Source: a virus (Duplodnaviria > Caudoviricetes). From it: 50,316 nucleotides of DNA. The notes under the pieces are model-generated. The model was not told where the DNA came from. It was given only the letters and a program-made list of their open reading frames with translations, and made no database searches. Shown here in pieces: positions 4,168 to 20,829 of the stretch. Location of the stretch: IMG/VR virus record IMGVR_UViG_3300032257_000019, positions 1 to 50,316 of that record. One strand, written 5' to 3'. Position 1 is the stretch's first letter; each line of letters begins with the position of its first letter. The position numbers and the translations under genes are program-made.

Positions 4168-4199
4168 ATTTGGTCTTATTTTCTGATCCGATTAAAGAG

Positions 4200-4227
4200 T
4201 TAGACAACAAAGTGTCGGTAAAAGTTC
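4200..4227 (-). promoter_or_regulatory. sigmaE/ECF-type promoter P1, GAACTT-N16-GTCTAA, upstream of terS
   Basis: Minus strand reads TGAAATTAAATT-GAACTT-TTACCGACACTTTGTT-GTCTAA. One of four intergenic copies. Confidence 0.75.
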
Positions 4228-4251
4228 AATTTAATTTCAATATATTTACAA

Positions 4252-4488
4252 CTATTTTATTAAACCCTTATCTATCAGAGACTTAGTGCTTATGTCATCA
4301 AGTCCTCTTTCTTCAATAACTTTAGCCATTTCAATTATTCTAGAAACAGGATAAAAGTCATTATTATTCATACTCATACCAAGATAAGGTTCTTCTAATA
4401 ATAGTCCTCGAGAGTCTCTATGCATCATCCTATAGGTTACTACTATATCTTTTTCGTATGAAGAGTACTGGGGTTCTATACTACTCAT
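4252..4488 (-). CDS. Hypothetical protein
   Basis: 78-aa ORF with a strong GAGGAGG RBS. Confidence 0.7.
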   Translation of the reverse strand: MSSIEPQYSSYEKDIVVTYRMMHRDSRGLLLEEPYLGMSMNNNDFYPVSRIIEMAKVIEERGLDDISTKSLIDKGLIK

Positions 4489-4626
4489 TTTCTTCCTCCT
4501 CTCTTGTAGAAGCCCTCTGGAGCCTCTCTACGGCGTTCTCTCTACTTTTAATACATTGGTACTTATATTTGTCTTGCGCCTCTCTGAGAGCTTCCTGTGA
4601 AGCCTGAGGGCATCTCTCTCTACCTA

Positions 4627-5040
4627 TTAGATCTTTTTCCATTGGTCTATCACCCATTTGGTTAGTTTCTTAAGAAAAGAAGTATTATCCAATTGTTTAG
4701 GTAACTTATTCAATTTATCCTTTTCTACCTCTATCTGATCTTTTATCAGTACTATATGTCTTTTATCCTGTACTGCTGTACCTGCATGCTTTGTTATTGG
4801 AGTTAGTGACTGCCTATCTGCATCCTCAAATAGAACCATACCCCTAGGTGATATAGCTGTGCATAGTACCTCATATACGTACCTCTCTCCTCTAGGGTCT
4901 TGGAACCCCCTACTGTAGTCCTCTATCTCAGATTTACTGTATATTATAAGATCTGGTCTATCCCCCTGATAGTTAATGCCTCTAAGTTGTCCTCCAAAGG
5001 GGACATTTCTAATCTGTCTACCATACCACTGCACTATCAT
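4627..5040 (-). CDS. Protein containing a degenerate terminase ATPase (Walker B region) fragment
   Basis: QLRGINYQGDRPDLIIYSKSEIED...YEVLCTAISPRGMV aligns with this genome's TerL KIRGMLWNGTRPDLIVCDDMENDD...VEALMPCLSDNGIV. It has a GAGG RBS. Confidence 0.65.
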   Translation of the reverse strand: MIVQWYGRQIRNVPFGGQLRGINYQGDRPDLIIYSKSEIEDYSRGFQDPRGERYVYEVLCTAISPRGMVLFEDADRQSLTPITKHAGTAVQDKRHIVLIKDQIEVEKDKLNKLPKQLDNTSFLKKLTKWVIDQWKKI

Positions 5041-5149
5041 CGGTATTCCCTCTTAACCTGTAAACCCTCTGTCTCTATTGGCCTACCCAGGAGTATTCTA
5101 AATAGATCTTTATACGTCAAATAAACTATATCACTACTAAATGCATTAT

Positions 5150-5470
5150 GTTTTACTCTCATCGGGATATCTCCTCATCAATCTATGTCTATAAGTTAAG
5201 GTTAGCACATTTTTCTGTACTCTGTCAAAAAGAGGAATACTCTAGTACGCTGTAATAAGTGTATGTATGTACTTAAAGTATGAGTAGCTCCTTAGGAATA
5301 CTCCTTGGGAGTACTCTGACTGGTCGCTATTCCAGTGGAGTAGTATCAGGTTATTACTCTTGTTTGTATTTACTCTGAAGTAGGAATAATACCTGATGAG
5401 TACTCTCATACTTCTGATTACTTACACACTGAGTAACTATCAGGATTACTCCTAAGCATAACTCTTTTAG
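5150..5470. repeat. Non-coding cluster of GAGTA/TACTC pentamers and short palindromes
   Basis: About a dozen irregularly spaced copies (GAGTACTC twice, GGAATACTC twice, ATTACTC twice, GAGTAGCTC, GAGTAACT) and no long ORF. Confidence 0.65.
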
Positions 5471-5473
5471 TAG

Positions 5474-5501
5474 TTAGACAACAGAATGTCCGTAAAAGTT
5501 C
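5474..5501 (-). promoter_or_regulatory. sigmaE/ECF-type promoter P2, (G)GAACTT-N16-GTCTAA, at the head of the leftward (late) arm
   Basis: Minus strand reads G-GAACTT-TTACGGACATTCTGTT-GTCTAA-CTACTAAAAGAG; near-duplicate of P1 over about 50 bp. Confidence 0.75.
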
Positions 5502-6015
5502 CATTTATTTTCCATATATTTTATAAATAATTATAGATAAGGCTCTAACTGGTTGATATTTGCATTTAGTCTAGGTTAGTGGTTACTAACATGGGAAGTG
5601 TTACTATGCATTTTCATGTTACTATTCCAAATATATATAAATGGGAGTACCCAGGAAGTACTTGTGAAATTGCCAAAATATAATTGGGAGTGTACATACC
5701 AAATGAGCCCTCCAGAGTTTTTCCCCCCTCCCCCCTTCACTAGAAACAGTACCCTACCCCCCCTTTTATAATTATTCCAAGTCTAGCACGATAGGGGCAT
5801 GATCGAAGGAGATAGGCGCAAATACTCCAATAAGAAAGGCACGAGATTTCCGGAGGAGCGGCCCCCCCTATATACATCAATGACTTACCACTATCATTAC
5901 CTTATACTATGCCTAGTGGATACCCCCTCATGAACCACAAGAGGCATATTCTAGAATAAAACATGATATACATCACAGTTTAATGGATTATTTGCATTTA
6001 ATTTACAATGAGCCC

Positions 6016-6045
6016 TTGAATTATTCAGATACTAGCCGCTATAAT
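6016..6045 (+). promoter_or_regulatory. Putative sigma70 early promoter, TTGAAT-N18-TATAAT
   Basis: Perfect -10, 4/6 match at -35, AT-rich upstream; 45 bp before the first early gene. Confidence 0.55.
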
Positions 6046-6090
6046 TACCACATAGAGACACAAACAGAGACTAAACAAGGAGACACACTA

Positions 6091-6243
6091 ATGATTAACA
6101 CAATGGGCACAAAATCACACGCCACACAAGAGCAAGCTTTTAACCATATGGAAGGACTTATTAATGATAATTATCATGTTACTAGCTGTCCTGATATGGA
6201 AAACAAAGGTAATACCCTAGTAATTTATTGGATGGAGGCATAA
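6091..6243 (+). CDS. First early gene, hypothetical protein (50 aa)
   Basis: ORF track 5983-6243. The start is moved to ATG 6091, after an AAGGAG RBS. Confidence 0.65.
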   Translation: MINTMGTKSHATQEQAFNHMEGLINDNYHVTSCPDMENKGNTLVIYWMEA

Positions 6244-6570
6244 TACAATGGATAATCAAATTAGAAGAGTAAACAATGGCTATATACTGACTAATTATAG
6301 AGGAGAAATGATAAAATACCCTACTCTTGTTAGTGCAATGTTTCAATTATTCTTAAATGGTAAAACATATGGATCAGATATTGACTTATGTGAGGTAAAT
6401 TTCTAATGAAAGGTTTATATAGTGATATGTACGGGAATGAATTTAATTGCTTAATATTGGCTTGTTCCCTTAATGGTAATCAATACATGATACTAGATAT
6501 TGAAGAGAATTCTATAGGCTGGTGTTCATGTCACTTGGTAGATGATAACTATTAATAGGAGTAATAAATA

Positions 6571-6777
6571 ATGACTATATTAACTAAATATACCATACAC
6601 CTATATACTAAAAGTGGGCATAGTAAGAAAGTCGAAGTATTTGCGAAAAGTCTATTAAATGCCTGTGATGTTGCAAAATGGAATAATAAAGGCTCGTCTG
6701 TATCAATGGCATGGCATAATTACCCCATTGAAACAAGAGAAGTTAAAAACCTAATTGAATTAAATAGGAGTAAATAG
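6571..6777 (+). CDS. Early hypothetical protein
   Basis: ORF with AGGAG RBS. Confidence 0.7.
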   Translation: MTILTKYTIHLYTKSGHSKKVEVFAKSLLNACDVAKWNNKGSSVSMAWHNYPIETREVKNLIELNRSK

Positions 6778-6856
6778 TCATGTTATTTTATTGGGATATG
6801 ATGTTGATATGTTTTGTATTGGCTTGCATATGGCTAGCGATTGGAGGTGAGGCGTA

Positions 6857-7045
6857 ATGAAACAACTAACAGACAATGAGAAGGATCAACTTGGTTTAAT
6901 ATGGGGGAATATTCTTGACTTAAATTACGAGGGGGACGATTGGGTGATAGATAACGGGCGAAAGGTCAGTAATATAGCCTTATACTATATATTACACGAC
7001 TTAATATATAATAGATATGAGCGAGTAAGGGGGAAACAAAAGTGA
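6857..7045 (+). CDS. Early hypothetical protein
   Basis: ORF with GGAGG RBS. Confidence 0.65.
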   Translation: MKQLTDNEKDQLGLIWGNILDLNYEGDDWVIDNGRKVSNIALYYILHDLIYNRYERVRGKQK

Positions 7046-7209
7046 ATAAACAAACTAATCATATAAACATACAGCTGAATAAGATACAAGCTAGATTACT
7101 AGCAGGTATCATTCAAGGGTATTACAAGAAACTACCCGAGGAAGGGTTAACTTATCAAGATAAGATACTCAGAAACATAGCTAACAGACTAATAAAGGAG
7201 TAATATATC

Positions 7210-7605
7210 ATGAACGATATTAAAGACAATTCAAACGAAAAGTGGGTCGAAGTGATACAAGAGTGTATTGCCGATAAGTGGACCCCAGAGAGTAAAAAGG
7301 AAGTCCCAGATGTTGATAAGTTAATGACTAGATGTACTGCTTGTCACCATTCGACACGCCTATGTACTAGCAGAGAAAACCCATATGTCGATTGTACTAA
7401 CTGTCCCATAGCAGAGTATACAGGAAAATCTCATTGTGATGGTACTCCTTACGAATCTTTAAGTGAGATATGGACCGAGGGTTTGTGTGAAGATGAAGAC
7501 AACCTAACAGGGGGTAACTTAGAAGAGATACACGATATTATTAGACAGGAGATATCCTTCCTGAATAAGGTTAAAAACTATATTCTTAATGATAGAAAGG
7601 TGTAA
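7210..7605 (+). CDS. Cys-rich, probably metal-binding early protein
   Basis: Pattern CTAC...C...CTNCP...C-DGTPY; AAGGAG RBS. Confidence 0.7.
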   Translation: MNDIKDNSNEKWVEVIQECIADKWTPESKKEVPDVDKLMTRCTACHHSTRLCTSRENPYVDCTNCPIAEYTGKSHCDGTPYESLSEIWTEGLCEDEDNLTGGNLEEIHDIIRQEISFLNKVKNYILNDRKV

Positions 7606-7611
7606 TATATT

Positions 7612-7845
7612 ATGAATACTTATAATACATATGATCACATAGTAGCAGGATATAGTATACCCAGTGGAGATATTGAAGTAAAAGAACAGGCTTTGATTGA
7701 TGTTATCAATGGCATTGTTTGGAGTGAGTTACACCAACAAGAAAATACAATTAAGTATGCCGAATCTGTTCTAGATCATGATGGTATATCGGCTTATTAT
7801 GATTATGGTGCTGATTACTATTTTTTTACTGATAGCGAGGAGTAA
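7612..7845 (+). CDS. Acidic early hypothetical protein
   Basis: ORF in a tightly packed operon. Confidence 0.7.
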   Translation: MNTYNTYDHIVAGYSIPSGDIEVKEQALIDVINGIVWSELHQQENTIKYAESVLDHDGISAYYDYGADYYFFTDSEE

Positions 7846-7850
7846 ACAAC

Positions 7851-8324
7851 ATGTTAACATTTAACCATTTAGAAAACTTTATACTTAATATTGCGCCGTT
7901 GCATTATCCTTGTAAAGAGGCTCCCAATACATTCGAGGAGCTTAAACAAGTTAATAAGGATAAAGTATTGCTATTACCTGTATTCTCTGGCGGGTGTGCC
8001 AATACTATTTGGAGTAATCCAAAAGTTAACCATGCTTTAAGAGCTTGGCATGATGATATACACCTAGAATATGATTATGATTTTTCGTTATATGGTGAGA
8101 TTAGTACAGCTAGAAAACATATTGAAGTGCTAAGAAAAAACCATCTAGGGGTATTCTCCAATCTCTTTTGGTGTGAAATAGTGGGACAAGTATTATATTA
8201 TAATAAGCATAAAAAATATGTATCGAATCAAAGGGAATTTGTATTGCTTTTACTTTGCCATGGTGTTAAAGTGGGTGACATTGGAGTGATTAACAATATA
8301 TTAGATAATATTGGAGAGGTTTAA
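7851..8324 (+). CDS. Conserved phage protein with a RAWHDDIH motif (possible zincin-like metal site)
   Basis: N-x-x-L-R-A-W-H-D-x-x-H...F...GE...H...E-x-x-G-Q pattern; function unknown. Confidence 0.6.
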   Translation: MLTFNHLENFILNIAPLHYPCKEAPNTFEELKQVNKDKVLLLPVFSGGCANTIWSNPKVNHALRAWHDDIHLEYDYDFSLYGEISTARKHIEVLRKNHLGVFSNLFWCEIVGQVLYYNKHKKYVSNQREFVLLLLCHGVKVGDIGVINNILDNIGEV

Positions 8325-8327
8325 GCC

Positions 8328-8954
8328 ATGTTAAAAGAACAAGCCATTAATTTTGTTGGTACTTTATCGAATACAAGTAAAATGCCTGGAAAATCAATAT
8401 CATTACCTGCTCAAGAGTGCAAGACAGGCTCAAAACTTAGAAAGGTAAAAGGCAGTGTTTGTGAAAAATGCTACGCCATGAAAGGATGTTATAGTTGGGG
8501 GAATGTACAAAAAGCTTTATATAATAGGCTTGATAAGGTAAACAATACAAGCTCTAGTGATTGGGTATCTGGTATGGTTAAACTAATTAATAAACAAAAG
8601 TATTTTAGATGGCATGACTCTGGGGATATCCAAAGCATTCAACATCTAGATAACATTTGTAAGGTTGTATTGTTAACACCTAATACACTTCATTGGTTGC
8701 CCACTAAGGAAGTTAAGATGGTAAGAGACTATTTAAAATCAAATGAGATACCAGACAATTTAAATATACGGGTATCATCCCCTATGATAGATCAAAAGCC
8801 TATTAAGATGCATAAAAGTGTTAATACTAGCACTGTTCACACTGATAAGAGTTATGGTTTTGAGTGTCCAGCAGGGGGACAAGGGGGAGCTTGTCTAGAT
8901 TGTCGCTCTTGTTGGAATAAAGATATTAAGAATGTGTCTTATAAGTTGCATTAA
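8328..8954 (+). CDS. GP88-family Cys-rich phage protein
   Basis: SKMP, C...CEKCYAMKG, FRWHDSGD, WLPTKE, and C-terminal CPA...CLDCRSCW. Confidence 0.75.
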   Translation: MLKEQAINFVGTLSNTSKMPGKSISLPAQECKTGSKLRKVKGSVCEKCYAMKGCYSWGNVQKALYNRLDKVNNTSSSDWVSGMVKLINKQKYFRWHDSGDIQSIQHLDNICKVVLLTPNTLHWLPTKEVKMVRDYLKSNEIPDNLNIRVSSPMIDQKPIKMHKSVNTSTVHTDKSYGFECPAGGQGGACLDCRSCWNKDIKNVSYKLH

Positions 8955-8965
8955 GGTTTTTTACT

Positions 8966-9433
8966 ATGAATAAATTACAATTATCACTAGCCTGTATTGC
9001 TTCAATCGCTATTAATTCAGCGGATGCCTTAGCAGATACCAGTATTTTAGTACATGGGGTATCAAAGCATGTTAATAGTCCTGCTTGTATGCTATATGGT
9101 AGCGATTTTAAACAATGCCAATACAATGAGCTTAATTATGGTTTGGGCGTTATAGAGCGCAATACAGGGGATAAGTGGTATTATATGAGTGGAGCTTATA
9201 AAAATTCTTTTGGTAGATTATCGACTTATATAGGGGGAGGGTATCAGATTAGTAAGTATTCTGGTATAAAAGGAGCGTTTATTACTGGATATCCACAATT
9301 AAAAGTAGTTCCCATGGTTGCACCATACTTGACAATTCCAACTTTTATTGATAAATTTACTATTAGTTTAGATATCCCCTTTATGCCTGGAACTACCCAA
9401 GCCTTGACGATGTCTATACAATATAAGTTATAA
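8966..9433 (+). CDS. PagP-like small outer-membrane beta-barrel protein
   Basis: Sec signal peptide (ADALA/D); SKH...YNELNYGLG...AYKNSF resembles PagP H...YNERPWGGG...FKDSW; amphipathic strands; C-terminus IQYKL. Confidence 0.7.
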   Translation: MNKLQLSLACIASIAINSADALADTSILVHGVSKHVNSPACMLYGSDFKQCQYNELNYGLGVIERNTGDKWYYMSGAYKNSFGRLSTYIGGGYQISKYSGIKGAFITGYPQLKVVPMVAPYLTIPTFIDKFTISLDIPFMPGTTQALTMSIQYKL

Positions 9434-9445
9434 GGAGTCTTTTTA

Positions 9446-9649
9446 ATGATTACAGGAGATTGTATAGTAAAGAGGAAAGAGTATGGACATGAAAAATGGC
9501 CTAAAAGGTTTCACACTATACCTCGGGTCGGTGATTATATCATGTCCAGTTGTGGAGTACAATTAAGGGTTATTAAAGTTACTCATACTACTCTTAAGAG
9601 GTATAAAATATATTCCACACCCCAAGTTGTACTAGAATTAACAGTATAG
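9446..9649 (+). CDS. Hypothetical protein with a PRVGD motif
   Basis: AAGGAG RBS; resembles 20572-20760. Confidence 0.7.
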   Translation: MITGDCIVKRKEYGHEKWPKRFHTIPRVGDYIMSSCGVQLRVIKVTHTTLKRYKIYSTPQVVLELTV

Positions 9650-9670
9650 ATAAAAGAGGAGCAATACATT

Positions 9671-10093
9671 ATGAAAGCATTAGACAGGATACCCATGGTT
9701 AGTAAGTGGTATGATTACAACGAATTAAGTAATAAGGTGATATGTGAGAGAGGTTTCACTTTTTCAGCTTTAGACGGATACATTGAAGAGGGTTATGCAG
9801 TAGCATTGGAAAAATCCAGAGAAAAGATTATTCCTAAAAGTGAGTTAAACGGTAGGGCTAGTATTGTAAAAGTATTACAAGACTATGCAGAAGCTTTTAA
9901 CAAAGAGCTAAGCAATCCAGAAGTTTGTTTTGGAGCCTGGGTAACTGATAAAGGAGATTTATATCTTGATGTCGTGGTTGTAGTGGATGATTTAAGTGAA
10001 GCCAAGCTAATAGCTAGTCATTTCGATCAAATAGCAGTATACCACCTAAACATGAAAAAGGTATTATTGATCGGAGGGGGTGAAGGGCTATGA
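9671..10093 (+). CDS. Conserved phage early protein (GAW...LYLD...F-D-Q-I-A-V); possibly a distant SAM-lyase-like fold
   Basis: GAGGAG RBS. The motif order loosely parallels phage SAM lyases; the function is unverified. Confidence 0.5.
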   Translation: MKALDRIPMVSKWYDYNELSNKVICERGFTFSALDGYIEEGYAVALEKSREKIIPKSELNGRASIVKVLQDYAEAFNKELSNPEVCFGAWVTDKGDLYLDVVVVVDDLSEAKLIASHFDQIAVYHLNMKKVLLIGGGEGL

Positions 10094-11522
10094 GTATAAA
10101 CAACTATGAAGTAATCCCTGTACCTGTTGATATAGACATGGCAAAAACCCTATATTACAAGGGAATAGCGATTACTCTGCAATCTTGGTATACAAGCCAT
10201 AAACCATTAATCATACATTATGACAGTGTAACTAAGATAGCTTTCACTAAACTATTATTTGGGTATTCTGTGTTAAACGATATAGGTATTGACCATATTA
10301 ATCTATCTATAGATGTAAAAGGAGAAAAACCCTAATGAAATACGCTCCTATCTTAACTTGGCAAATGATACCCACTACACTGTTAAATGATATGAAGGAT
10401 TTATTATTTATAGGAGATACAACCGATTATGATACCACTATCATATTAAAACAGGTTAATAGCCTGGAATATGATATGATGATCATGGAACTATCCTCCT
10501 TTGTCCATGGTCTGATAGGGTATATTCCGTTGTTTGTTATAATTGTGGATGAGGAGTCTGATTTTTATGATAAACCAGAAGAAGAGCTTAATTGATGTTG
10601 TTGTATTGTGGTTGATTATAATCGCTCTTATGGCTGGTGGTATGTTTATGGTTGTTGATTTTATAACACCTGAAGTATCACTATTAAACAAAATTCAAAC
10701 CGATATGGAGATTTATAGACTATGAGAAACAAAAAGGTAAAGAGTTTTAATAAAGTTAAGCAGTTTCTACCGAAGGATATGCCTTATAGGTTGTATGAGG
10801 TAAAGCAGCATGCTCCTCGTTCATTCCTGGTAACTGATAAAGAGGGTAATACACAAACTATGCTGCAGCCTATGTTACAAGTTAGATTGCATGAGAGATG
10901 TATCCGTAAGAAGAAAAAGAAGTTTAAAGTAGAGTTAAGAAAGGGGTAGTAATATGAATGAGCAAATGTTTAATTTAATGGCAGAAGCTGTTGTATTGTC
11001 CTACTTTATAGGGATGCTTATGGGGGGTATTGTTGCAGCACATGTTATGATTAAATCCAGTAAAAAGGATAATGATAATGAATAAGTATACTATGGCTGA
11101 ACTACAAAGAAAAGCAAAGGAAGCTATTAAAGCAAGAGATACCAAGGATGATTTCAGATACAATATACTGATTGAAGGGATTTGTTTATTAACTGGTATG
11201 CATCCTAAAGTAGCAGACAGGCGCATCGAAAGGCTAGCAAAAGGAGATAAAGATGCTGCGTAAAAATGAAACTGTACTAGAAAACTTCTTACTGGATTGT
11301 GAAATGTATGATGTGGAGCAGTGGAAGGAGGATGTTAGATTTGGTCTAACAGATGATATCCATACCATGCAAAAACGAACCTATACGTGTAATACTTGTC
11401 ATAAAGTTGTAGAGGAAAAAGTATTTGAAGTTATTAGTGTGGGTAGTAAGGTGAAAACCAAATGTAATGGGTGTAGAACTAAAGCGAGAGGAGCTACCCG
11501 AAGGAGATTACATGGCTACTAG
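10090..11522 (+). other. Run of small early hypothetical ORFs (10090-10335, 10335-10595, about 10543-10725 membrane peptide, 10722-10949, 11072-11263, 11253-11522 CxxC...CxxC zinc ribbon)
   Basis: Abutting or overlapping + strand ORFs with RBSs; no recognisable families. Confidence 0.65.
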
Positions 11523-11997
11523 ATATCTTAAACGGGTAGGTCCATCCAACTATCGTCTTACGTTTGGTAAGTTGTATGCGTTTGATGGTAGGCGTATAAC
11601 GGACGATGAAGGGGGGAGTATGAAGCCTAGTTATGGTAATAGTGGATACTGGCTGGAGTTGTATATAGATGAATCGCCTATTATACATCAAGGGGATATA
11701 ATATATGCTAAGGACGATAGAGGACGCACTATTACCCAGGATATTGTAAGTGGTAATCACAACATTAAAGAGGAGCAACAAGAAATGAGTAATGCAAATA
11801 TTGAGATGAGAGTATATATTCAAGGTAAATTAGGTAATGATTTATCCGATAAAGAGATATTCCAGGTAATTAAGGAACTAGAAAAAGAACTTGGTTATCT
11901 TGAATCCCTGAATGTAGACTCAGATAAGGTCAATGAAGCTATAGTTGGGATTAATGGGGATATACATGAATTAGTTAAATATGTAGACAATCGGTAA
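11512..11997 (+). CDS. Two-domain hypothetical protein with a coiled-coil C-terminal domain
   Basis: ORF track 11467-11997. ATG 11512 follows AAGGAG, and a second in-frame GAGGAG...ATG lies at 11785. Confidence 0.65.
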   Translation: MATRYLKRVGPSNYRLTFGKLYAFDGRRITDDEGGSMKPSYGNSGYWLELYIDESPIIHQGDIIYAKDDRGRTITQDIVSGNHNIKEEQQEMSNANIEMRVYIQGKLGNDLSDKEIFQVIKELEKELGYLESLNVDSDKVNEAIVGINGDIHELVKYVDNR

Positions 11998-12012
11998 TAA
12001 GGGGAGTCATGT

Positions 12013-12889: not shown

Positions 12890-12897
12890 AATATATT

Positions 12898-12924: not shown

Positions 12925-13020
12925 CTACTAAAAGAGCTTTCCTAGAGTAGCTAATTAGTAATCTAATACTTCTAACATGTACAGATACACACTAATGAAT
13001 AATCTAAAGGAGTATTCCTA

Positions 13021-13206
13021 ATGATGTCGTATAGAGATAAGACATTTTGTGGTAGTGATTGTGAAAATGAGTCTTGTCATAGATTTATTACAGAGTCAGT
13101 ATGGGATAATTCAGAGGAGTTAGGGTTACCCTTAGCTCAAGTTAATTTTAGCTCAGAATGTGATGAATATATTAAACCAAAGGAGAAACAAGATGAAAAT
13201 AACTAG
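13021..13206 (+). CDS. Small four-Cys protein
   Basis: YRDKTFC...C...CHR...C pattern; AAGGAG RBS. Confidence 0.7.
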   Translation: MMSYRDKTFCGSDCENESCHRFITESVWDNSEELGLPLAQVNFSSECDEYIKPKEKQDENN

Positions 13207-13408
13207 AATAGAGAGTGAGGCCCCTAAGACATTTGAGCCTATCACTGTACAAATTGTTATAGAGTCTCGAGAGGAGGTCTTCGCTTTAAGAGAGGCTAGT
13301 GCTAATCTGTGTATAGGTACAGTGAACAAGGAGGTATCTACCTGGGAGAGGTCGCGGGTAATAGTTGGCCTTCTGGAGATAATCTATAGTACTATCAATG
13401 AGGGGTAA
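13193..13408 (+). CDS. Hypothetical protein, paralogue of 15665-15913
   Basis: Start moved to ATG 13193 after AAGGAG; FEPITVQIVIESREE motif. Confidence 0.7.
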   Translation: MKITRIESEAPKTFEPITVQIVIESREEVFALREASANLCIGTVNKEVSTWERSRVIVGLLEIIYSTINEG

Positions 13409-13416
13409 TAATAATA

Positions 13417-14301
13417 ATGTATATCTCAGAGGTAGAAGGTAAAGGGGGTATATCTGCTAAGGTTGTAGCTGATAGTATAGCTAATGAGGTTAGATTAGTT
13501 ACTATGGAACTACGATACCCTAGATTTATACATTCAGAGTTCATGACTCATAGAGTATTTAGTCGTAATGCTAGTAGCTCTAGGGCTATCCCTATTGATA
13601 AGATGATTAATCAAGTTATGTGGGATACAGCTAGACCAGTTGAATGGGGCCTGAATCAACCTGGGATGCAAGCTGAGGACGTTATAACAGATAGGGATAA
13701 GGTCAAGGGTTATGAGTACGATTGGATATCAGCAGCAAGAGAAGCAGCTTTCTATGCTGGTGTTATGAATGGCCAAGGGCTACATAAGCAAATAGTTAAT
13801 AGAATACTTGAACCTTATCAGTTTATCAAGGTCATAGTTACTAGTACTGAATGGGATAACTTCTTTAACTTAAGATTAGATAAGGCAGCTCAACCAGAGA
13901 TACAGGAGTTAGCTAATTGTATGAAGTCTGCCATGGATATAAGTAATCCTGAGGAGCTAAATGAGAATCAATATCATTTACCCTACTTGTCAAGGGATAC
14001 TAAGTATGCTGATAAGGTGGAGTACGGAGATGATCTAATCAAAATGAGTGTAGCTAGATGTGCAAGAGTATCCTATTTAAATCATGATAATAGTGAACCA
14101 AATGTGGATAAAGATGTCAAACTACATGATATGTTATTAAATATGGGTCATATGTCTCCTTTTGAGCACATTGCTACACCTATGACTGATGAGATAGCTT
14201 GTAATGGGGATTGGCCCAAGGGATATACTCACATGGATAACCATGGGGTCATGTGGTCGGGTAACTTCAAAGAGTGGATACAGTTGAGACAAACATTATA
14301 G
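13417..14301 (+). CDS. thyX: FAD-dependent thymidylate synthase
   Basis: HSEFMTHRVFSRNASSSRAIP variant of the ThyX signature, plus HKQIVNR, LRLDKAAQPEI and HMSPFEH. Confidence 0.88.
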   Translation: MYISEVEGKGGISAKVVADSIANEVRLVTMELRYPRFIHSEFMTHRVFSRNASSSRAIPIDKMINQVMWDTARPVEWGLNQPGMQAEDVITDRDKVKGYEYDWISAAREAAFYAGVMNGQGLHKQIVNRILEPYQFIKVIVTSTEWDNFFNLRLDKAAQPEIQELANCMKSAMDISNPEELNENQYHLPYLSRDTKYADKVEYGDDLIKMSVARCARVSYLNHDNSEPNVDKDVKLHDMLLNMGHMSPFEHIATPMTDEIACNGDWPKGYTHMDNHGVMWSGNFKEWIQLRQTL

Positions 14302-14313
14302 GAGAGATGAGAG

Positions 14314-14637
14314 ATGGAACAAGGTATAAAGAAAGTAGCAATATTTCGTAGTGTAGAGTATGGGTATGAGAATATTCAAGAAGACTCTTTTGAAAGCGTT
14401 GATAATTATTATCGTTTATCTGAGTATGAGGAGGTATATTTCACCCCCATCCCTGAAAGAGATGTTGTTATCTCTGAGGTAAATGCTCTTAAGGATCAAA
14501 AGCAAACGATCCAAGCAGAAACACAGGTTAAAGTTGATCGGATAGATAAAAAGATTAATACCCTGCTAGGTATTGAACATAACCCAGGCTCAGCCATTGA
14601 TGGTGAATGGGATGATGATGATGATATTCCATTCTAG
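14314..14637 (+). CDS. Coiled-coil protein ending in the bacterial SSB C-terminal tip (DDDIPF)
   Basis: C-terminus EWDDDDDIPF; the body is short and helical rather than an OB fold. Confidence 0.7.
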   Translation: MEQGIKKVAIFRSVEYGYENIQEDSFESVDNYYRLSEYEEVYFTPIPERDVVISEVNALKDQKQTIQAETQVKVDRIDKKINTLLGIEHNPGSAIDGEWDDDDDIPF

Positions 14638-14643
14638 GAGGAG

Positions 14644-14904
14644 ATGTATATGATTAGTACTATCAGTAAAGAAGAATTAGCAGACCTTGATAGATTGGTC
14701 TGGGATGCTGGCCTGGATGAGGTCCAGGAGATAGTGGATGAGTTGAACTGGATACCTGTCTCTAGGAGACAAGCTATCTATCTTATTAAGTATAAGAGTG
14801 GATGTACAAAAGGAATAGCTGAGGTAGTACATGAGCTTTATTTACAGCTACGTGTGAGATTAATTAAGCTATCCCTCCAAGAGAAGGAGGAGTCCAATGA
14901 ATGA
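14644..14904 (+). CDS. Small protein resembling ECF sigma factor region 4 (tentative)
   Basis: AGGAGG RBS; IPVSRRQAIYL...IAEVV...LRVRL follows the spacing of sigmaE region 4 as I recall it. Confidence 0.4.
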   Translation: MYMISTISKEELADLDRLVWDAGLDEVQEIVDELNWIPVSRRQAIYLIKYKSGCTKGIAEVVHELYLQLRVRLIKLSLQEKEESNE

Positions 14905-15490
14905 AGGTGTAAGAGTATTAGCAGCTATATCAGCTCCTCGGTTAGGATTTACCGATAATATGCGTAGTATGATGTTACTCCAGGAATTAGGTATCCCTTC
15001 TGTAATGTGTACAGGGGCGTACTGGGATAGATCCTTACAGAAATGTTTTGATTATGCAGTAGAGCAAGGATTTGATTATGTATTAACTGTAGATTATGAT
15101 TGTATATTCAGTAAACAGGATGTTATGACCTTATTGAATGAGGCTGTCAACAGTGAGTTATCTGCAATAGCTCCCTTAATGGCAGGTAGAGGTAATCTAG
15201 GCCAGTTGCATACAGTCTTAGGTAATGTACCCGATACACAGATAATACCTGTAGAGTCAGCTCACTTCGGTTTAACTGTTATTAGTACAGATGCATTGGA
15301 TGATGTAAGGGACTGCTGGGTAGGGGGTAATATAGATGTAGATCCTGACGTACAGTTCTGGGAAGATCTAAAGGAGGAAGGTCACCAGGCATATGTACAT
15401 CAAGGGGTAGGGGTAGGTCATCTAGAACTTATGATTAAATGGCCTGGAGGTACTTATGGAACACTCGATGAGTGGTACAGTAATGAATAA
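14897..15490 (+). CDS. GT-A fold glycosyltransferase (GT2-like)
   Basis: DYVLTVDYD (DxD motif), HFGLTVIS, DPDVQFW, VGHLE. Confidence 0.75.
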   Translation: MNEGVRVLAAISAPRLGFTDNMRSMMLLQELGIPSVMCTGAYWDRSLQKCFDYAVEQGFDYVLTVDYDCIFSKQDVMTLLNEAVNSELSAIAPLMAGRGNLGQLHTVLGNVPDTQIIPVESAHFGLTVISTDALDDVRDCWVGGNIDVDPDVQFWEDLKEEGHQAYVHQGVGVGHLELMIKWPGGTYGTLDEWYSNE

Positions 15491-15664
15491 ACCACAGGGC
15501 AATGCTGATTTACTAATACCAGCACAGGTTCATCTTGTAGTCATCACTAAATATGAGATGGACGCTTATATCTCCTTAATCGATAAGGAAGGGGGAAAGC
15601 GACTAGCTGAAGATCTAGTAAAACTAAAGGTAATATTAACTAAGTTAGGACAAGGTGAGAATAT

Positions 15665-15913
15665 ATGAAAGTAGAAACAGAGGAACAAAAGGCTGAATTT
15701 AAACCTGTATCAATTACATTTACAATGGAAACAGAAGATGATTTACGGGCATTGTGGCATATCTTTAATATCCCAGACTCTTTTATCTTAGGGACTGTTG
15801 AGTCTACACGTGTACCTACTAGGCCCTCAGTGTATCGCCCAAGAGATGTAAATATGTATGGCCTATGGGCACCCGTAGATGCCTTGGCTAAACAGGCAGG
15901 ATTGAGAAAATGA
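15665..15913 (+). CDS. Hypothetical protein, paralogue of 13193-13408
   Basis: FKPVSITFTMETEDD motif. Confidence 0.7.
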   Translation: MKVETEEQKAEFKPVSITFTMETEDDLRALWHIFNIPDSFILGTVESTRVPTRPSVYRPRDVNMYGLWAPVDALAKQAGLRK

Positions 15914-15928
15914 GGGGAGAAATAGCAA

Positions 15929-16528
15929 ATGTTTGAAAAGTTTCCAAAATTAGGTAGACTAAGTAAAGGTATTACTATAACTGAGAAGTTAGATGGGACT
16001 AACGCACAATTACATGTGATTGAACACTCCTTATCCCCAGCATCTCATATAGTAGATCAACGTATACATGTATCAGAGTGCGGTAGACTTAGCCTCTTTG
16101 CAGGTAGTCGTAACAGGTATGTATATCTTGATAAGGATAATTATGGATTTGCTAATTGGGCCAAGGCGCATGCAGATGACTTGATTGAGTTCTTAGGGGA
16201 AGGTCGTCATTACGGTGAGTGGTGGGGAGCTGGTGTACAACGTAGGTATGATAGAGAAGAAAAGATATTCTCCTTATTCAATACTAACCGTTGGGGGCCA
16301 GGAAGACAAGAGTTACCTGACTACTTAAGCGTAGTCCCAGTACTATATCAAGGACCATTTGATACCACAGCTATCGATGATACTATGATGGCATTAAAAG
16401 AGAGCGGAAGTGTAGCAGCTCCTGGTTTTATGAATCCAGAGGGTATTGTTGTATTTGATCATGCTACAGGTACTATGTTTAAGAAGACATATGAATATGA
16501 TAAAGGTAAGTGGACAGGAGAGAAATAA
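15929..16528 (+). CDS. RNA ligase, Rnl2-like nucleotidyltransferase domain only
   Basis: Motif I TEKLDGTN, SRNR, motif III YGEWWG, motif IV EGIVV, motif V FKK. Confidence 0.85.
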   Translation: MFEKFPKLGRLSKGITITEKLDGTNAQLHVIEHSLSPASHIVDQRIHVSECGRLSLFAGSRNRYVYLDKDNYGFANWAKAHADDLIEFLGEGRHYGEWWGAGVQRRYDREEKIFSLFNTNRWGPGRQELPDYLSVVPVLYQGPFDTTAIDDTMMALKESGSVAAPGFMNPEGIVVFDHATGTMFKKTYEYDKGKWTGEK

Positions 16529-16530
16529 TT

Positions 16531-16791
16531 ATGAGTGGATTAACAATACCAGCGATAGTTTTAATGATAACTATGATAGGTCCCTCGGGTGAGTTAGGAC
16601 AGGCAGTAGCATTCCCTGAGAGCATGAAGAAATGCCATTATATTGCTAAGGTTATGATTAATGATGAAAAGGAAAGTATAGCAGCAGAAGATAACCTACG
16701 AAAAGAGGGAAAGGGTGTAGAGCCTCGTACTAAATTACAGGCGATATCTTGTGTTAAAGCAGAGGTGCCTATTAACGGACAGATTATGTAA
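16531..16791 (+). CDS. Hypothetical protein with a hydrophobic N-terminus and two Cys
   Basis: ORF track 16510-16791; ATG 16531 follows GGAG. Confidence 0.6.
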   Translation: MSGLTIPAIVLMITMIGPSGELGQAVAFPESMKKCHYIAKVMINDEKESIAAEDNLRKEGKGVEPRTKLQAISCVKAEVPINGQIM

Positions 16792-18461
16792 TGAGTAGAA
16801 TCATAGGGGATACTGCTTGTCCTGGGTGCAGGGAGCAAGGTAGAGATAAGAATGGGGATCACCTCATGCTATATGAGGATGGAGGGTCCTATTGCAATAG
16901 GTGTGGGTTTACGGAGAGACCTGGGGCCCATGGGAGAGGGCCGGAGGATGAGGGAGTATCCTCTCCCCCTAAAAGAATATTAAAGAGGAGTGTTATGGAA
17001 CTTAACGAGATCCAAGAACTACCAATAGCTGCTCTTAAGTCAAGAGGTATCAGCGAGAAGGTAGCTAAACATTATGGGATACATACTGAATATGATACCT
17101 CAACCAGGGAAGAGGTTGCCCATTACTACCCTATAACTAAGAGCGGTAAGATCATAGCTTATCGTAAGAGGAGACTACCTAAGGAATTCTGTACAGAAGG
17201 AGAGAGTATTAAAGGGCAGAAGGTTGATATGTTTGGCCAAGCTCAGTGCCAAGTAGGAGGAGGTAAACTAGTTATTGTCGAGGGACAAGATGATATGCTA
17301 GCTGCTTGCCAGATGTTATGGGAGAGATATCCTAAGTTTACTCCTAATGTCGTATCCTTGGTCACAGGGGCCAATACTAAAAGTGTAGCGGATAATCTAA
17401 GCTTTATAAATTCATATAAAGAAGTTATATTGTGCTTGGATATGGATGATGCAGGTAAAAAGGCTACTAATGATATATACAAGATGATTACTTCTAAAGT
17501 ACTTCTCATGTCTATACCTGAGAAAGATCCTAATGAAGTACTTAAGAAAGGAAAGAGTGCTGCATTTGTATCTGCATTCTTTAATGCTGTACCTTATGTT
17601 CCAGATGGTATCTTGTCTGTAGATGATGTATATGATGAAGCTATTGAGATGCCTCAATGGGGTCGTAAGTGGCCATGGCCTAGCCTTGATGCATTAACCT
17701 ATGGTAGAAGAGATGGAGAAGGTATCTTTGTAGGAGCTGCAGCTAAGGCAGGTAAGACTTTATGGTTATCTCAGATGGTTCAATCTATCGTAGAGAATGA
17801 AGGTAAGAAGGTATTTCTATGTAAGTTTGAACAAAATCCTGCACAGACTGTCAAAGAAGTAGCAGGTAAGATAGCTCATAAACAGTTCCATATACCTGGA
17901 GGGGACTTTACACAAGAGGATTTAGCTGAAGCTGTAGAAAAGACAAAGGGTAAATTACTTATATTTGATGCATCATTTACAGATGTAGGTCAAAGCAATT
18001 TATGGGATAGGCTCAAACCAGCTATAAGGCATGCTGTATTGGTTGAAGGTGTTAAGGATGTATTCATTGATCCTATTACTCAATTGACAGATGGTATGTC
18101 AGCTAGTGATACTGAAACAGAACTTAGAAGGTTCTCTAATGAGATCCAAGGGATGTCTAAGGATCTAGGTTTCTTCTACTATTGCTTCTGTCATTTAAAG
18201 GCACCTGAGGGATCTAAGACACATGAAGAGGGCGCTAAGGTTAAGGTAGCTCAGTTCAGGGGGTCTAGGGCTATGGCTGAGAAGACTAAGTTTATGTTAG
18301 GTATTGAGAGGGATCAGTATGCTTCTGATCCTGCCATAAGGAATACAAGTAAGTTTCATCTACTCCTTAACAGTAGTTTTGGTAAGTCAGGGTCCTTTGA
18401 AGTTAAGTTTGATGAAGATACTGGTGATTATTTGGAAGAACCTAGAAGAGTGGGGTATTGA
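16791..18461 (+). CDS. DNA primase-helicase (T7 gp4-like)
   Basis: Zinc finger CPGC...CNRC, TOPRIM motifs VEGQDD and DMDDAG, helicase Walker A GAAAKAGKT, FIDP, HLK and FRGS. Confidence 0.95.
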   Translation: MSRIIGDTACPGCREQGRDKNGDHLMLYEDGGSYCNRCGFTERPGAHGRGPEDEGVSSPPKRILKRSVMELNEIQELPIAALKSRGISEKVAKHYGIHTEYDTSTREEVAHYYPITKSGKIIAYRKRRLPKEFCTEGESIKGQKVDMFGQAQCQVGGGKLVIVEGQDDMLAACQMLWERYPKFTPNVVSLVTGANTKSVADNLSFINSYKEVILCLDMDDAGKKATNDIYKMITSKVLLMSIPEKDPNEVLKKGKSAAFVSAFFNAVPYVPDGILSVDDVYDEAIEMPQWGRKWPWPSLDALTYGRRDGEGIFVGAAAKAGKTLWLSQMVQSIVENEGKKVFLCKFEQNPAQTVKEVAGKIAHKQFHIPGGDFTQEDLAEAVEKTKGKLLIFDASFTDVGQSNLWDRLKPAIRHAVLVEGVKDVFIDPITQLTDGMSASDTETELRRFSNEIQGMSKDLGFFYYCFCHLKAPEGSKTHEEGAKVKVAQFRGSRAMAEKTKFMLGIERDQYASDPAIRNTSKFHLLLNSSFGKSGSFEVKFDEDTGDYLEEPRRVGY

Positions 18462-18462
18462 T

Positions 18463-18663
18463 ATGGATGAGATCTTTGTTAAAAAAGGGGATATGGTTAA
18501 GTGTTACTTTCCCAGTGGTAAGGTTGTATTTGGTAAGGTGTTGAGTCTCCCTAGTAATGCCCATGGCCCTACTGTTCTTCAAACCTACTATGAGGGGAAA
18601 GAGGATCTTATATGCTATGTCTTTAATTGTGAACATATGTATATAATATCTAGAGGGGACTAA
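18463..18663 (+). CDS. Hypothetical SH3-like small protein
   Basis: MDEIFVKKGDMVKC... fills the gap between helicase and polymerase. Confidence 0.6.
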   Translation: MDEIFVKKGDMVKCYFPSGKVVFGKVLSLPSNAHGPTVLQTYYEGKEDLICYVFNCEHMYIISRGD

Positions 18664-18664
18664 T

Positions 18665-20572
18665 ATGCTAATCTGTGACTGTGAGAGTACTGGGTTTAAA
18701 TATGAAAGTACTAAGATATGGGTTATCTGTGCTTATGATACTGAGACTAGACGCTACTATATGTCCTTCGATGAAAGTGTGTACGATGAGTTTGAGATAT
18801 ATCAACTAATCCTGGGGGAAGAAATTACTTGTAATATCCTACAAAGTCATGAGCAGATGGTTGAGTTATTCAGTAGTAAGACAGTATGCTTCCATAACTA
18901 CTTTCAACATGATAAACCTTTAATTAAGAAGTTTTATCCAGAGTTCTCCCCCGCTGGTGAAGAGGATAGTTACATATTATCTCAGCTATATAATCCAGAT
19001 AGGGGATTACATGGTCTAGCTGCATGGGGAGAGAGATTTGGACTGCCCAAACCTGCACATGAGGAATGGGATAGGTTCTCTCCAGAGATGTTACATAGAG
19101 TTATCGAGGATGTTAAGATAAATGTATTAACCTGGGAGGAACTTCAGAAGGAGAAGGGATACTGGGAGAAGAAAGGTAATAGCTGGGATCTTGCTACTAA
19201 GATTGAATATGGAATAGCTAATGTCCAAGGTGAGCAGGAGATGCATGGTGTTCTGGTTGATGAAGAGGAAGCATACTCTTTAGCAGATGAGATATTCTTA
19301 GAGATACAGAAGTTAGATGAGTACTTGGATAGTGAGATGCCCTTGAGGGTTATCCAGGAGAAGAGAGCTACATATGAGGATGAACCATTCACTAAAGCTG
19401 GTAAGTTAAAATCTCATGTATTAAAGTGGTTTGATGGAGATGAATTAGTAGAGGGTCCCTTTAGTAGGGTATCTTTTGAGAAGACTAACCTTAATGCTCC
19501 TTCTCAGATTAAGGACTTCTTATTGTCTCAAGGATGGAAACCAATTGAATGGACTAAACCTACTAATCTACACCCTAATGGTAGTCCTAAGATGACTATT
19601 AAGAATAGTTATGGGGAGACAGTCCCTTGTCCTTCCTTAATGGAACTTAATAGTGGCTTAGGTCTAGCTATCGGTAAGAGATCTGTATTAAAACATAGAG
19701 CTGGTATACTATTTGGAGTAAGGAAGAAGGATAGTAAGCTCACTGGTGTTATTAATATCATGCGGGATGACGGTAGGATTGAAGCAGGAGCTGTAACTAA
19801 TGCTACTAATACTGGTCGTATGGCACATAGAGGGTTAGTTAATGTACCTAAACCTAAGGATAAGGACCTATGGCCAAGTAATAGGCAGATAAGATCTCTC
19901 TTTATTGTACCAGATGATAAGATAATGATGGGTGTTGATGCAGATGGATTAGAAGCTAGGATGGAAGCTCATGCTTGTCTACCATATACAGGGGGACAGG
20001 CTTATGCTTATGAACTATTGGAAGGGGATGTGCATGCTAACAATGCTATCATATTTGGTACAGATAGAGATGGAGCTAAGGCCCCTAAGTATGCTTTAAC
20101 CTATGGCTGTCAAGCTGAGAGATTAGCACATACATTAGGGTGCCCTATAGGTAAAGCCAGAGAGTTATTCAATGACTTCTGGAGCGGTAATACAGCCTTA
20201 TCTGAATTTAAGGAAGCTATAACTAAGTTCTGGAAAGATACAGGAGGTAAGTATATCATAGGTATAGATGGAAGACGTATCAGTACTAGGTCTGAGCATT
20301 CATTGGTTAATGCATATTTCCAGAGTACAGGTAGTATTGTGGTTAAGGTAGCAGCAATGTACCTTAATAAATGGGTTAAGCTTAAATGTCTTGACGCTCA
20401 ACAAATTATTATATACCATGATGAGCTTGAGTATGAAGTAAATCCGAGGGACCAGGATAGGGTGAATTATCTTGCTATAAAGGCATTTGAAGAGGCGGGT
20501 AAGTTCCTCAAGATAAGAGTACCAGTAACAGGTTCTCCTAAATGGGGTAGAAACTGGGAGGCTGTTCACTAA
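18665..20572 (+). CDS. polA: DNA polymerase family A (T7-like) with a 3'-5' exonuclease domain
   Basis: ExoI DCES, ExoII HN...HD, TGRMAH, motif A DADGLE, motif B RDGAKAPKYALTYG, motif C HDE. Confidence 0.95.
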   Translation: MLICDCESTGFKYESTKIWVICAYDTETRRYYMSFDESVYDEFEIYQLILGEEITCNILQSHEQMVELFSSKTVCFHNYFQHDKPLIKKFYPEFSPAGEEDSYILSQLYNPDRGLHGLAAWGERFGLPKPAHEEWDRFSPEMLHRVIEDVKINVLTWEELQKEKGYWEKKGNSWDLATKIEYGIANVQGEQEMHGVLVDEEEAYSLADEIFLEIQKLDEYLDSEMPLRVIQEKRATYEDEPFTKAGKLKSHVLKWFDGDELVEGPFSRVSFEKTNLNAPSQIKDFLLSQGWKPIEWTKPTNLHPNGSPKMTIKNSYGETVPCPSLMELNSGLGLAIGKRSVLKHRAGILFGVRKKDSKLTGVINIMRDDGRIEAGAVTNATNTGRMAHRGLVNVPKPKDKDLWPSNRQIRSLFIVPDDKIMMGVDADGLEARMEAHACLPYTGGQAYAYELLEGDVHANNAIIFGTDRDGAKAPKYALTYGCQAERLAHTLGCPIGKARELFNDFWSGNTALSEFKEAITKFWKDTGGKYIIGIDGRRISTRSEHSLVNAYFQSTGSIVVKVAAMYLNKWVKLKCLDAQQIIIYHDELEYEVNPRDQDRVNYLAIKAFEEAGKFLKIRVPVTGSPKWGRNWEAVH

Positions 20573-20760
20573 TGGACAACATAGCAATATACATATTCAT
20601 AGATGGGGCCCAGTACGGGCTAAGACACTGGAAGGTGGTGCCAAGGGTTAATGATACAATCTTTTTAGAGGGACCTAAGGAGGGGGAGTACAAGGTAGAT
20701 CGTGTAGCTTGGTGTGGGACTCATACCCCCCATGCAATATTGGAGGTTATAAAAGTATGA
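20572..20760 (+). CDS. Hypothetical protein with a PRVND motif
   Basis: Translationally coupled to the polymerase; resembles 9446-9649. Confidence 0.65.
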   Translation: MDNIAIYIFIDGAQYGLRHWKVVPRVNDTIFLEGPKEGEYKVDRVAWCGTHTPHAILEVIKV

Positions 20761-20769
20761 AATTAAATT

Positions 20770-20797
20770 GAACTTTAATATAGACGTTGGTGTCTAA
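20770..20797 (+). promoter_or_regulatory. sigmaE/ECF-type promoter P4, GAACTT-N16-GTCTAA, upstream of the SSB-like gene
   Basis: TGAAATTAAATT-GAACTT-TAATATAGACGTTGGT-GTCTAA; the 19 nt TGAAATTAAATTGAACTTT are identical to P1. Confidence 0.75.
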
Positions 20798-20829
20798 CAC
20801 ATGTAGGTAATTAATAAGGAGTAGTTGTA

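Follow-up and report, generated by a model that had tools for sequence, protein, structure and literature searches.

Elements with the anatomy of sigmaE (RpoE/AlgU) promoters head the non-early operons of an uncultured phage and recur in its distant relatives

Among the known means by which phages re-programme host RNA polymerase are their own sigma factors, polymerases and proteins that modify sigma70. The window studied here, an entire IMG/VR viral record of 50,316 bp (38% GC; IMGVR_UViG_3300032257_000019), carries four copies, P1 to P4, of the bipartite element GAACTT-N15-17-GTCTAA, and poses the question of which RNA polymerase holoenzyme would read them. An earlier note on this DNA had likened the copies to promoters of the envelope-stress sigma factor sigmaE (RpoE/AlgU). 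The comparisons reported here support the view that the sites are a real, non-random and lineage-conserved element with the anatomy of RpoE/AlgU-type promoters, that is, promoters for a sigma factor of the extracytoplasmic function (ECF) type. On balance, we favor the reading that P1-P4 are RpoE/AlgU (ECF02-like) promoters which would be recognized by host RNA polymerase in association with the host envelope-stress ECF sigma factor.

The pattern GAACTT-N15-17-GTCTAA matched the window exactly four times, in each case in a gap between open reading frames (ORFs) and on the strand of the genes that follow (Table 1). Both the positions claimed in the earlier note and its description of the sites as intergenic and directed into downstream genes were therefore borne out. 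Dinucleotide-preserving shuffles yielded a mean of 0.01 matches, none of 100 shuffles reached four, and tolerance of one mismatch produced no further site in the window. The shared flanks remarked on previously also were present: 19 nt are identical between P1 and P4 (tgaaattaaattGAACTTT) and 18 nt between P2 and P3 (GTCTAActactaaaagag). A weight matrix built exclusively from 18 sites of relatives assigned 23.8-31.6 bits to the window sites, and no site of 20 bits or more was found in twenty Markov shuffles of the window. P2 is followed by a leader of ~310 nt that extends to a small ORF (5037-5162). The genes behind P3 are ORF 13021, thyX (13417) and those for an RNA ligase, a primase-helicase and PolA. 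P4 had been described as heading genes for a single-stranded DNA-binding protein (SSB) and nucleases: a 5'-3' exonuclease and an endonuclease do follow, and after them a phosphoesterase and an amidase endolysin, but the first gene belongs to phrog_862, a family of unknown function, and an SSB was not shown. As all four sites constitute one promoter class, the labels 'middle' and 'late' are unproven.

At promoters recognized by sigmaE, transcription begins 5-6 nt beyond the -10 element and in most cases with a purine; for P1, start sites at ~4193-4195 would be predicted. The GAAC and GTC boxes at -35 and -10, respectively, are common to many ECF groups. PMC1312014 gives the -35 and -10 elements of Escherichia coli sigmaE promoters as GGAACTTTT and TCAAA, with a preferred spacing of 16 nt (range 15-19) and an A/T-rich UP region; the same two boxes are quoted for Vibrio in PMC4890791, and UP elements of sigmaE promoters are modeled in PMC3326320. 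All four window sites contain GAACTTT at -35. P2 possesses the full GGAACTTTT and the other three have T before GAACTT. The -10 hexamer is GTCTAA in each case, one position removed from the E. coli TCAAA core. P3 has 16 nt between GGAACTT and TCTAA and the other three sites have 17 nt, within the 15-19 nt range. A/T-rich UP-like tracts (aaatatattgaaattaaatt and similar) precede the four sites and likewise the copies in relatives. A sigma70 promoter scan of positions 1-20000, a range that ends before P4, did not return P1-P3 on their own strands, and by direct reading the key A and T positions of a sigma70 -10 element are missing from the hexamers GAACTT and GTCTAA. The phage matrix also was applied to the 620 nt upstream of rpoE in four proteobacterial metagenome-assembled genomes (MAGs). 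The best hit in all four was GAACTT or GAACTA, N15 and GTC(T/C/G)A(T/A), with GTCTAT, GTCCAT, GTCTAT and GTCGAA as the -10 hexamers.

The TerL family to which the window belongs is very large (of 8,000 candidates that were scored, 3,906 proteins reached E<=1e-30), and relatives were examined as 80 IMG/VR loci and 14 MAG loci around TerL proteins of 39-51% identity. The element and its AT-rich upstream tract recur in distant relatives (TerL 40-51% identical) that include the cultured Alcaligenes phage vB_Af_QDWS535, in which one copy, at 48815-48841 of the record, lies 44 nt before the terS-like ORF and 53 nt from the annotated coding sequence at 48895. The exact motif was detected in six of the 80 IMG/VR loci, one of which (L069) looks like chance. 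A search of 29 whole records found it in seven, with 10 sites between them, and a reversed control pattern gave no match there. For two MAG-binned phage contigs, no match existed in 4.0 Mb and 0.8 Mb of sequence, respectively, beyond the two on the phage contig itself. The AT-rich tract and TTGTCTAA are near-universal among the copies, and the usual gap is N15, equivalent to 16 nt from GGAACTT to TCTAA. When a strict 18-base pattern was applied to all of IMG/VR, 88 stretches matched at the sigmaE spacing compared to 13 with a gap two bases longer, a ~7-fold difference (the off-register control pattern was written with a gap of N13-14). The 16-nt spacing characterized 68 of the 88 strict matches, and homologs of window proteins were encoded at 28 of the 88 loci.

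Eight whole or near-whole genomes yielded 17 exact sites, and every site shares the strand of the genes around it. Twelve are outside same-strand ORFs, four are within a DnaB-like helicase gene, where they occupy similar places, and one overlaps the end of a doubtful ORF of 61 aa. The usual pattern in relatives resembles that in the window, with one site for the packaging and structural arm and at least one for a replication and recombination block. The helicase-internal copies (G002, 16030-16056; G003, 25937-25963; G004, 7317-7343; Alcaligenes phage OK172329, 31419-31446) are ~380 nt before the next gene, or 851 nt in the Alcaligenes phage, and their spacers resemble those of P1 and P2 (TTTTAC(C/G)GACA, GGACATTC), a conservation that a simple two-box promoter leaves unexplained. 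Counts of 8-mers and a search for TTGTCAA in motif-negative loci returned solely AT-rich and sigma70-like words in place of another shared motif.

The region of 700 nt ahead of the terS-like gene was compared in 48 loci. The element was present in eight, although one of these is doubtful (L082, 16.4 bits), and a sigma70 promoter matching at 11 or more of 12 positions was present in 21, many of which are TTGACA-N17-TATAAT with an extended TG. No locus had both and 19 had neither. The probability of zero overlap between the two promoter types was ~0.006 by hand calculation. The alternation of two textbook host promoter types at one position points to host holoenzymes as the likely readers.

Profile searches of the window recovered neither a sigma factor nor a T7-type RNA polymerase, in agreement with the earlier note, which had seen no full-length sigma factor or RNA polymerase gene. 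Pfam Sigma70_r2 (PF04542) and TIGR02937 gave zero matches at E<=10 in six frames, and no T7-type RNA polymerase was found in the window. A custom ECF profile of eight sequences (four RpoE proteins, three other ECF sigma factors and one phage sigma domain), run unfiltered on the six frames, produced a best match of E=0.3 and 5.2 bits. Matches to PF08281 and phrog_351 in the window were confined to the helix-turn-helix (HTH) of the terS-like protein. Six other motif-bearing genomes that are whole or nearly so (G002, G003, G004, G031:C13, G035:C2 and the Alcaligenes phage) also were without a sigma match. The 24 early proteins of the window that were tested lacked a homolog (E<=0.01) in nine motif-bearing or sigma-bearing relatives among the ten genomes searched, and the sole early-protein match (ORF 8328-8954) was to MW202796 which lacks the motif. 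The shared proteins that are not clearly structural are limited to TerL, the terS-like protein, a 5'-3' exonuclease and an endonuclease. In four relatives (L101-L104) TIGR02937 gave weak hits; the two that were read, L101 and L103, are HTH-HNH homing endonucleases and were rejected as sigma factors. The ORFs concerned, L101 1111-1665 and L103 1117-1692, each on the minus strand, combine an HTH similar to sigma region 4 with HNH and adjoin the terS-like gene.

The terS-like protein, P0001, is the only conserved HTH protein, and a homolog is encoded upstream of TerL in 70 of 88 loci. Its family matches are restricted to weak MerR and sigma region 4 HTH hits, with no terS family in Pfam or PHROGs, and comparison of its profile with PDB sequences gave nothing significant. 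A structural model (mean predicted local distance difference test score of 78) comprises an HTH (residues 71-107), a long helix (111-147) and a hairpin (149-174); of a small terminase one would expect an HTH at the N terminus, an oligomerisation helix in the middle and a beta element. The best consistent PDB rows were chains of 2ao9, which we take to be terminase-like, at probability 0.63-0.85 but weak E values of 0.07-0.2. P0001 was considered as a hidden sigma factor or late activator and set aside: the sigma-like match covers a single HTH, and the modeled fold would be HTH-helix-hairpin. A role as a motif-specific factor likewise was discounted, as P0001 is equally present in clades that have sigma70 promoters and lack the motif. 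Four observations, namely the unshared early proteins, the distribution of P0001, its predicted fold, and the motif-bearing relatives without a sigma match, argue against a conserved phage reader.

Three relatives do encode a sigma factor. Giant proteins of 1,946, 1,730 and 1,723 aa in the structural arms of G033:C244, G034:C50 (the contig of locus L114) and G034:C47, respectively, each contain a complete ECF sigma factor, with Sigma70_r2 and r4_2 above Pfam cut-offs, an N-terminal peptidoglycan hydrolase (Peptidase_M15_3 or SLT) or LPD23 domain, and Gly-rich hydrophobic segments. As relatives encode an ECF sigma factor, the statement that the lineage has none is false; it holds for the window and the six other motif-bearing genomes. 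Homology of the window protein P0132 to the giants is confined to their C-terminal ~600 aa (32% identity, 3e-87, residues 346-959 compared to 1113-1714 of the C50 protein). P0132 has no sigma domain and no Pfam family, and its N-terminal 345 aa are without similarity to the sigma segment. Among 24 database relatives of P0132, 18 are 993-1,147 aa in length and none has a sigma family on record. The lineage can bring its own sigma factor, and the window either lost it or never had one.

The sigma region-4 helix of the C244 protein is RpoE-like (VPVGTVRSRLNRGR compared to CPVGTVRSRIFRAR in RpoE), and this contig carries the motif at 28.8 bits. The C50 and C47 proteins have different helices. No site exceeds 13 bits in the whole 46-kb C50 contig, and the best site reaches 13.8 bits in the 20 kb examined of the 47.7-kb C47 contig. 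In these three sequences the motif appears to track the RpoE-type reading helix, which links it to an RpoE-type reader. The C50 contig (L148-L150) harbors nine copies of a 17-mer palindrome, TGTTCCAAATTGGAACA or a one-base variant, that contains GGAACA (for example at 10905, 16363 and 23579). Three copies mark gene boundaries: one follows TerL, one follows the capsid gene and one immediately precedes the gene for the giant sigma-bearing protein. The palindrome could be the promoter or operator class of the sigma factor of that phage.

The reading of P1-P4 by a host RpoE/AlgU-type holoenzyme is plausible and is the leading one, in that it fits better than any alternative that was framed. Nevertheless, several points weigh against it. 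The -10 element, TCTAA, departs from the TCAAA consensus of E. coli, and three of the four sites have a spacer of 17 nt where 16 nt is preferred. The motif is clustered in a FastTree TerL tree, with 7 changes compared to 11.5 for shuffled labels; therefore common descent accounts for part of its recurrence. In this tree, in which the window occupies a long branch, at least five motif changes are forced by supported branches and at least one 'negative' label is wrong, as L011 carries a GGGAACTTTT...GTCAGA variant. Scans of the genome collection for protein families depend on a loose pre-filter that yielded no candidates, and the RNA polymerase control matched no genome. Some 20 early ORFs could be placed in no known family, and P0001 is the only window protein that was folded. 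Relatives can encode an ECF sigma factor, and a very divergent or split factor in the window is conceivable. Moreover, to entrust most of a genome to a tightly sequestered stress sigma factor would seem a risky strategy, and its mechanism of release is conjectural. The L011 variant, at ~9100-9130 upstream of a terS-like gene at 9316, reads GGGAACTTTT...GGTGTCAGA, with an AlgU-like TCAGA in place of TCTAA, and suggests drift of the -10 element among members of the lineage.

A phage factor that is unrecognizable by sequence, whether a divergent or split sigma factor or a protein that re-targets a host sigma factor, might read the sites instead, with the likeness to sigmaE a legacy of descent from an RpoE-like sigma factor. 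The complete ECF domains in the giant proteins of three relatives lend weight to this possibility, as does the homology of P0132 to the C-terminal module of the giants, which implies that an ancestor may have had the sigma factor. Most early ORFs also lack a recognized family, and ECF-like sigma factors encoded by phages, such as phiEco32 and 7-11, are known (PMC12276001, PMC8948821). Set against these points, the six-frame searches were empty of sigma-like hits even when unfiltered, the N-terminal segment of P0132 is unlike the sigma segment, no early protein is common to the nine motif-bearing or sigma-bearing relatives and the single match falls in a motif-less phage, six other motif-bearing genomes share the lack of a sigma match, and an ECF-type reader of GGAACTT and GTC should be detectable, as it is in C244. 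We regard a concealed phage factor as rather unlikely.

It is more improbable still that the reader is a host ECF sigma factor of another group, or one in a non-proteobacterial host, such that the name RpoE/AlgU is a misnomer. The sample appears to be a microbial mat metagenome, GAAC and GTC boxes are shared among many ECF groups, and the MAG bins with relatives span many phyla, though binning of phage contigs is unreliable. The extended match, comprising GAACTTT, TCTAA, the spacing and the UP-like tract, is in contrast specific to the RpoE type by the consensus of PMC1312014; the same layout precedes rpoE in all four proteobacterial MAGs, the one cultured motif-bearing relative infects a betaproteobacterium, and a PagP-like early protein of the window points to Pseudomonadota. 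Least credible is the proposal that the sites are not promoters at all but binding sites of a phage or host protein, for instance in replication, packaging or repression, or a mobile repeat. The partly conserved spacers, with TTTTAC(C/G)GACA common to P1, P2 and the G002 and G003 sites, are needless for a two-box promoter, and four of the 17 exact sites are inside the DnaB-like helicase gene. Against this, every one of the 17 is on the strand of the local genes and 12 are outside same-strand ORFs just upstream of operons. In addition, consensus sigma70 promoters take the place of the element at the same position in other loci, its dependence on spacing in IMG/VR is consistent with a bipartite promoter, and its layout matches that of rpoE autoregulatory promoters.

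From these comparisons we infer the promoter role of the sites, the identity of the sigma factor that would read them and the route of its release. If host sigmaE is the reader, the early arm would be transcribed from a sigma70-type promoter at its head, whereas the nucleotide and replication block (P3), the recombination and lysis block (P4) and the packaging and structural arm (P2 and P1) would need the ECF holoenzyme and would switch on only once the sigma factor had been freed. Release presumably would come about through infection itself, or an early phage product, perturbing the envelope or the anti-sigma factor. A broader scheme is more tentative: this large, mostly uncultured and podovirus-like lineage may use three interchangeable drives of non-early genes, namely plain sigma70 promoters, promoters for the host envelope-stress sigma factor (the case of the window) and promoters of this second type read by an RpoE-like sigma factor that the phage brings within a giant protein ejected from the virion. 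For the phage of the window, damage to the envelope on infection, perhaps aggravated by the PagP-like protein, might then act as a timer that frees host sigmaE from its anti-sigma factor for the replication, lysis and structural genes. We consider this scheme doubtful, if possible.

The PagP-like protein offers a lead to the host. This early protein, a predicted secreted outer-membrane beta-barrel, has its nearest clusters in Pseudomonadota and PagP, is present in none of ten relatives examined and is an unusual cargo for an early operon. By its sequence it probably marks a diderm, proteobacterial host, and its role as an inducer of envelope stress is a possibility of a speculative kind. Further leads are the motif-bearing relative that infects the betaproteobacterium Alcaligenes faecalis and the sigma70-type early promoter, a strong site from which the host appears to use ordinary -35/-10 promoters. 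The MAG titles of relatives were rejected as host evidence as they span many phyla, with six of 14 Pseudomonadota, and are unreliable.

The window organization is that of two gene arms which diverge from a non-coding region of 820 nt (5163-5982). In the plus arm (5983-28264), ~24 small early ORFs are followed, in this order, by thyX, an RNA ligase-like gene, a T7-type primase-helicase, family A DNA polymerase, the 5'-3' exonuclease, the endonuclease, the phosphoesterase and the amidase endolysin. Its likely first early gene starts with ATG at 6091 and is preceded by AAGGAG. The minus arm runs from 5162 via position 1 to 28570 and includes the terS-like HTH protein, tRNA-Asn, TerL, portal, major capsid protein, a head-closure protein, a tail fiber-like protein, a 'DNA ejection' protein and finally P0132. 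A 127-nt 'direct terminal repeat' is internal to a portal ORF of 697 aa whose reading frame continues over the contig junction (window 1-717 and 48813-50316, minus strand). The record is therefore a circular assembly, in which the repeat is an assembly overlap instead of a physical end of the genome; the late arm accordingly is unbroken from P2 via position 1 to 28570. Read by eye, the control region between the divergent arms has long C and G runs (CCCCCCTCCCCCC, GGGGGGG), and the P2 leader is dense in GAGTACTC and GGAGTA(T/A)TCC words; the leader word GGAGTATTCC also is the ribosome-binding region behind P3.

Named phages are distant, with PolA at most 31% identical and TerL 45% identical to metagenomic MW202796 and 40% to the Alcaligenes phage. 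Among sequencing runs, a search for the window listed one DNA run, of a microbial mat metagenome which may be its source, and no RNA run. Megablast of positions 12000-22000 against the phage collection revealed no close relative at the DNA level, and a single-protein locus search with TerL found no relative. The equivalent search with PolA recovered two short contigs, L006 and L007, both without the motif. In L006 (3150-5668) an insert of ~600 nt, which may be a mobile insertion or an intron, divides the closest PolA relative (64% identity) between two ORFs, 3150-3935 and 4541-5668.

Table 1. Features of the window and of related contigs (scores in bits refer to the weight matrix built from sites of relatives).
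Feature	Position	Strand	Remarks
P1, GAACTT-N16-GTCTAA	4200-4227	-	32 nt before terS-like ORF 3427-4167; 30.5 bits
P2, gGAACTT-N16-GTCTAA	5474-5501	-	head of whole minus (packaging/structural) arm; 31.6 bits
P3, GAACTT-N15-GTCTAA	12898-12924	+	96 nt before ORF 13021; 23.8 bits
P4, GAACTT-N16-GTCTAA	20770-20797	+	32 nt before ORF 20830-21519 (phrog_862); 24.9 bits
sigma70-type promoter-like TTGAAT-N18-TATAAT	6016-6045	+	head of early arm; 10/12 matches; putative function
PagP-like outer-membrane beta-barrel protein, early, predicted secreted	8966-9433	+	phrog_3600, 2.9e-15; signal-peptide-like N terminus by eye
terS-like HTH protein P0001	3427-4167	-	first sizeable gene behind P1; lineage-wide conserved upstream of TerL
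tRNA-Asn (GTT)	2555-2630	-	between terS-like gene and TerL
P0132, 994 aa	28570-31554	-	last late-arm gene; adjoining gene is phrog_598 'DNA ejection'
giant sigma-bearing gene, G033:C244	L152:3203-9043
giant sigma-bearing gene, G034:C50	L149:3601-8793
giant sigma-bearing gene, G034:C47	L153:10370-15541

If the reading by host sigmaE is true, a lytic programme that depends on a host stress sigma factor would follow a different logic, in which the alarm of the cell for envelope damage serves as the developmental clock of the phage. Envelope-stress mutants (rseA/mucA, rpoE/algU) then would alter the timing and yield of the phage, bacteria could resist by damping the envelope-stress response, and such promoters would be usable as stress-gated parts. 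The comparative data make the reading testable in the cultured Alcaligenes phage vB_Af_QDWS535, and they reveal what appears to be the swapping of sigma70 and sigmaE promoters at a single position within a lineage that comprises thousands of uncultured phages. The earlier note had remarked that the strategy is not one known to it as well described, and the literature searches made found no paper on a lytic phage with promoters read by host sigmaE.

The ECF sigma factor within the probable ejection protein of some relatives, if packaged, would be a virion-delivered sigma factor. The giant protein may be such a factor, as its position and domains suggest packaging and ejection. Transcription proteins delivered by the virion are familiar from the N4 virion RNA polymerase and the 'polyvalent' ejected proteins. 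The giants of the relatives likewise are huge, occupy the position of an ejection protein and have an N-terminal peptidoglycan hydrolase or LPD23 domain. In contrast to N4, their cargo is a complete ECF sigma factor and not a polymerase, and P0132 of the window is without the sigma part. Literature searches, aimed only at phage-encoded and host sigma usage, found no description of a virion-delivered sigma factor. The main text of a 2026 preprint that surveys sigma domains across phage genomes contains neither the word 'virion' nor the word 'terminase'.

Sigma cascades are established for T4 (gp55/gp33) and SPO1 (gp28, gp33/34), in which the replacement sigma factors are phage-encoded and the promoters are unlike any host class. 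The window is similar in that gene classes would be told apart by promoter type and sigma replacement, whereas its second class looks exactly like a host stress-sigma class. The promoter consensus of phiEco32 and 7-11 also differs from that of the window. These two phages use an ECF-like sigma factor (gp36) for middle and late promoters and an inhibitor of host sigma70, gp79 (PMC8948821, PMC12276001). In this respect as in the window, a switch from sigma70 promoters to a second class would involve the host core RNA polymerase and a group-4-like sigma factor, but those phages encode the sigma factor and the window has none detectable. Compared with promoters of the E. coli sigmaE regulon as described in PMC1312014, and with those of AlgU in Pseudomonas, the window sites are alike in the -35 element, the GTC/TCNAA -10 element, the spacing and the UP-like tract; they differ in that they head most operons of a lytic-looking phage and not chromosomal genes for envelope maintenance. 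At 24-32 bits they are closer to consensus than the four rpoE promoters examined (9-21 bits). Overall, the window is best regarded as a variant form of phage sigma-switching, with the host envelope-stress factor as the probable second sigma factor.

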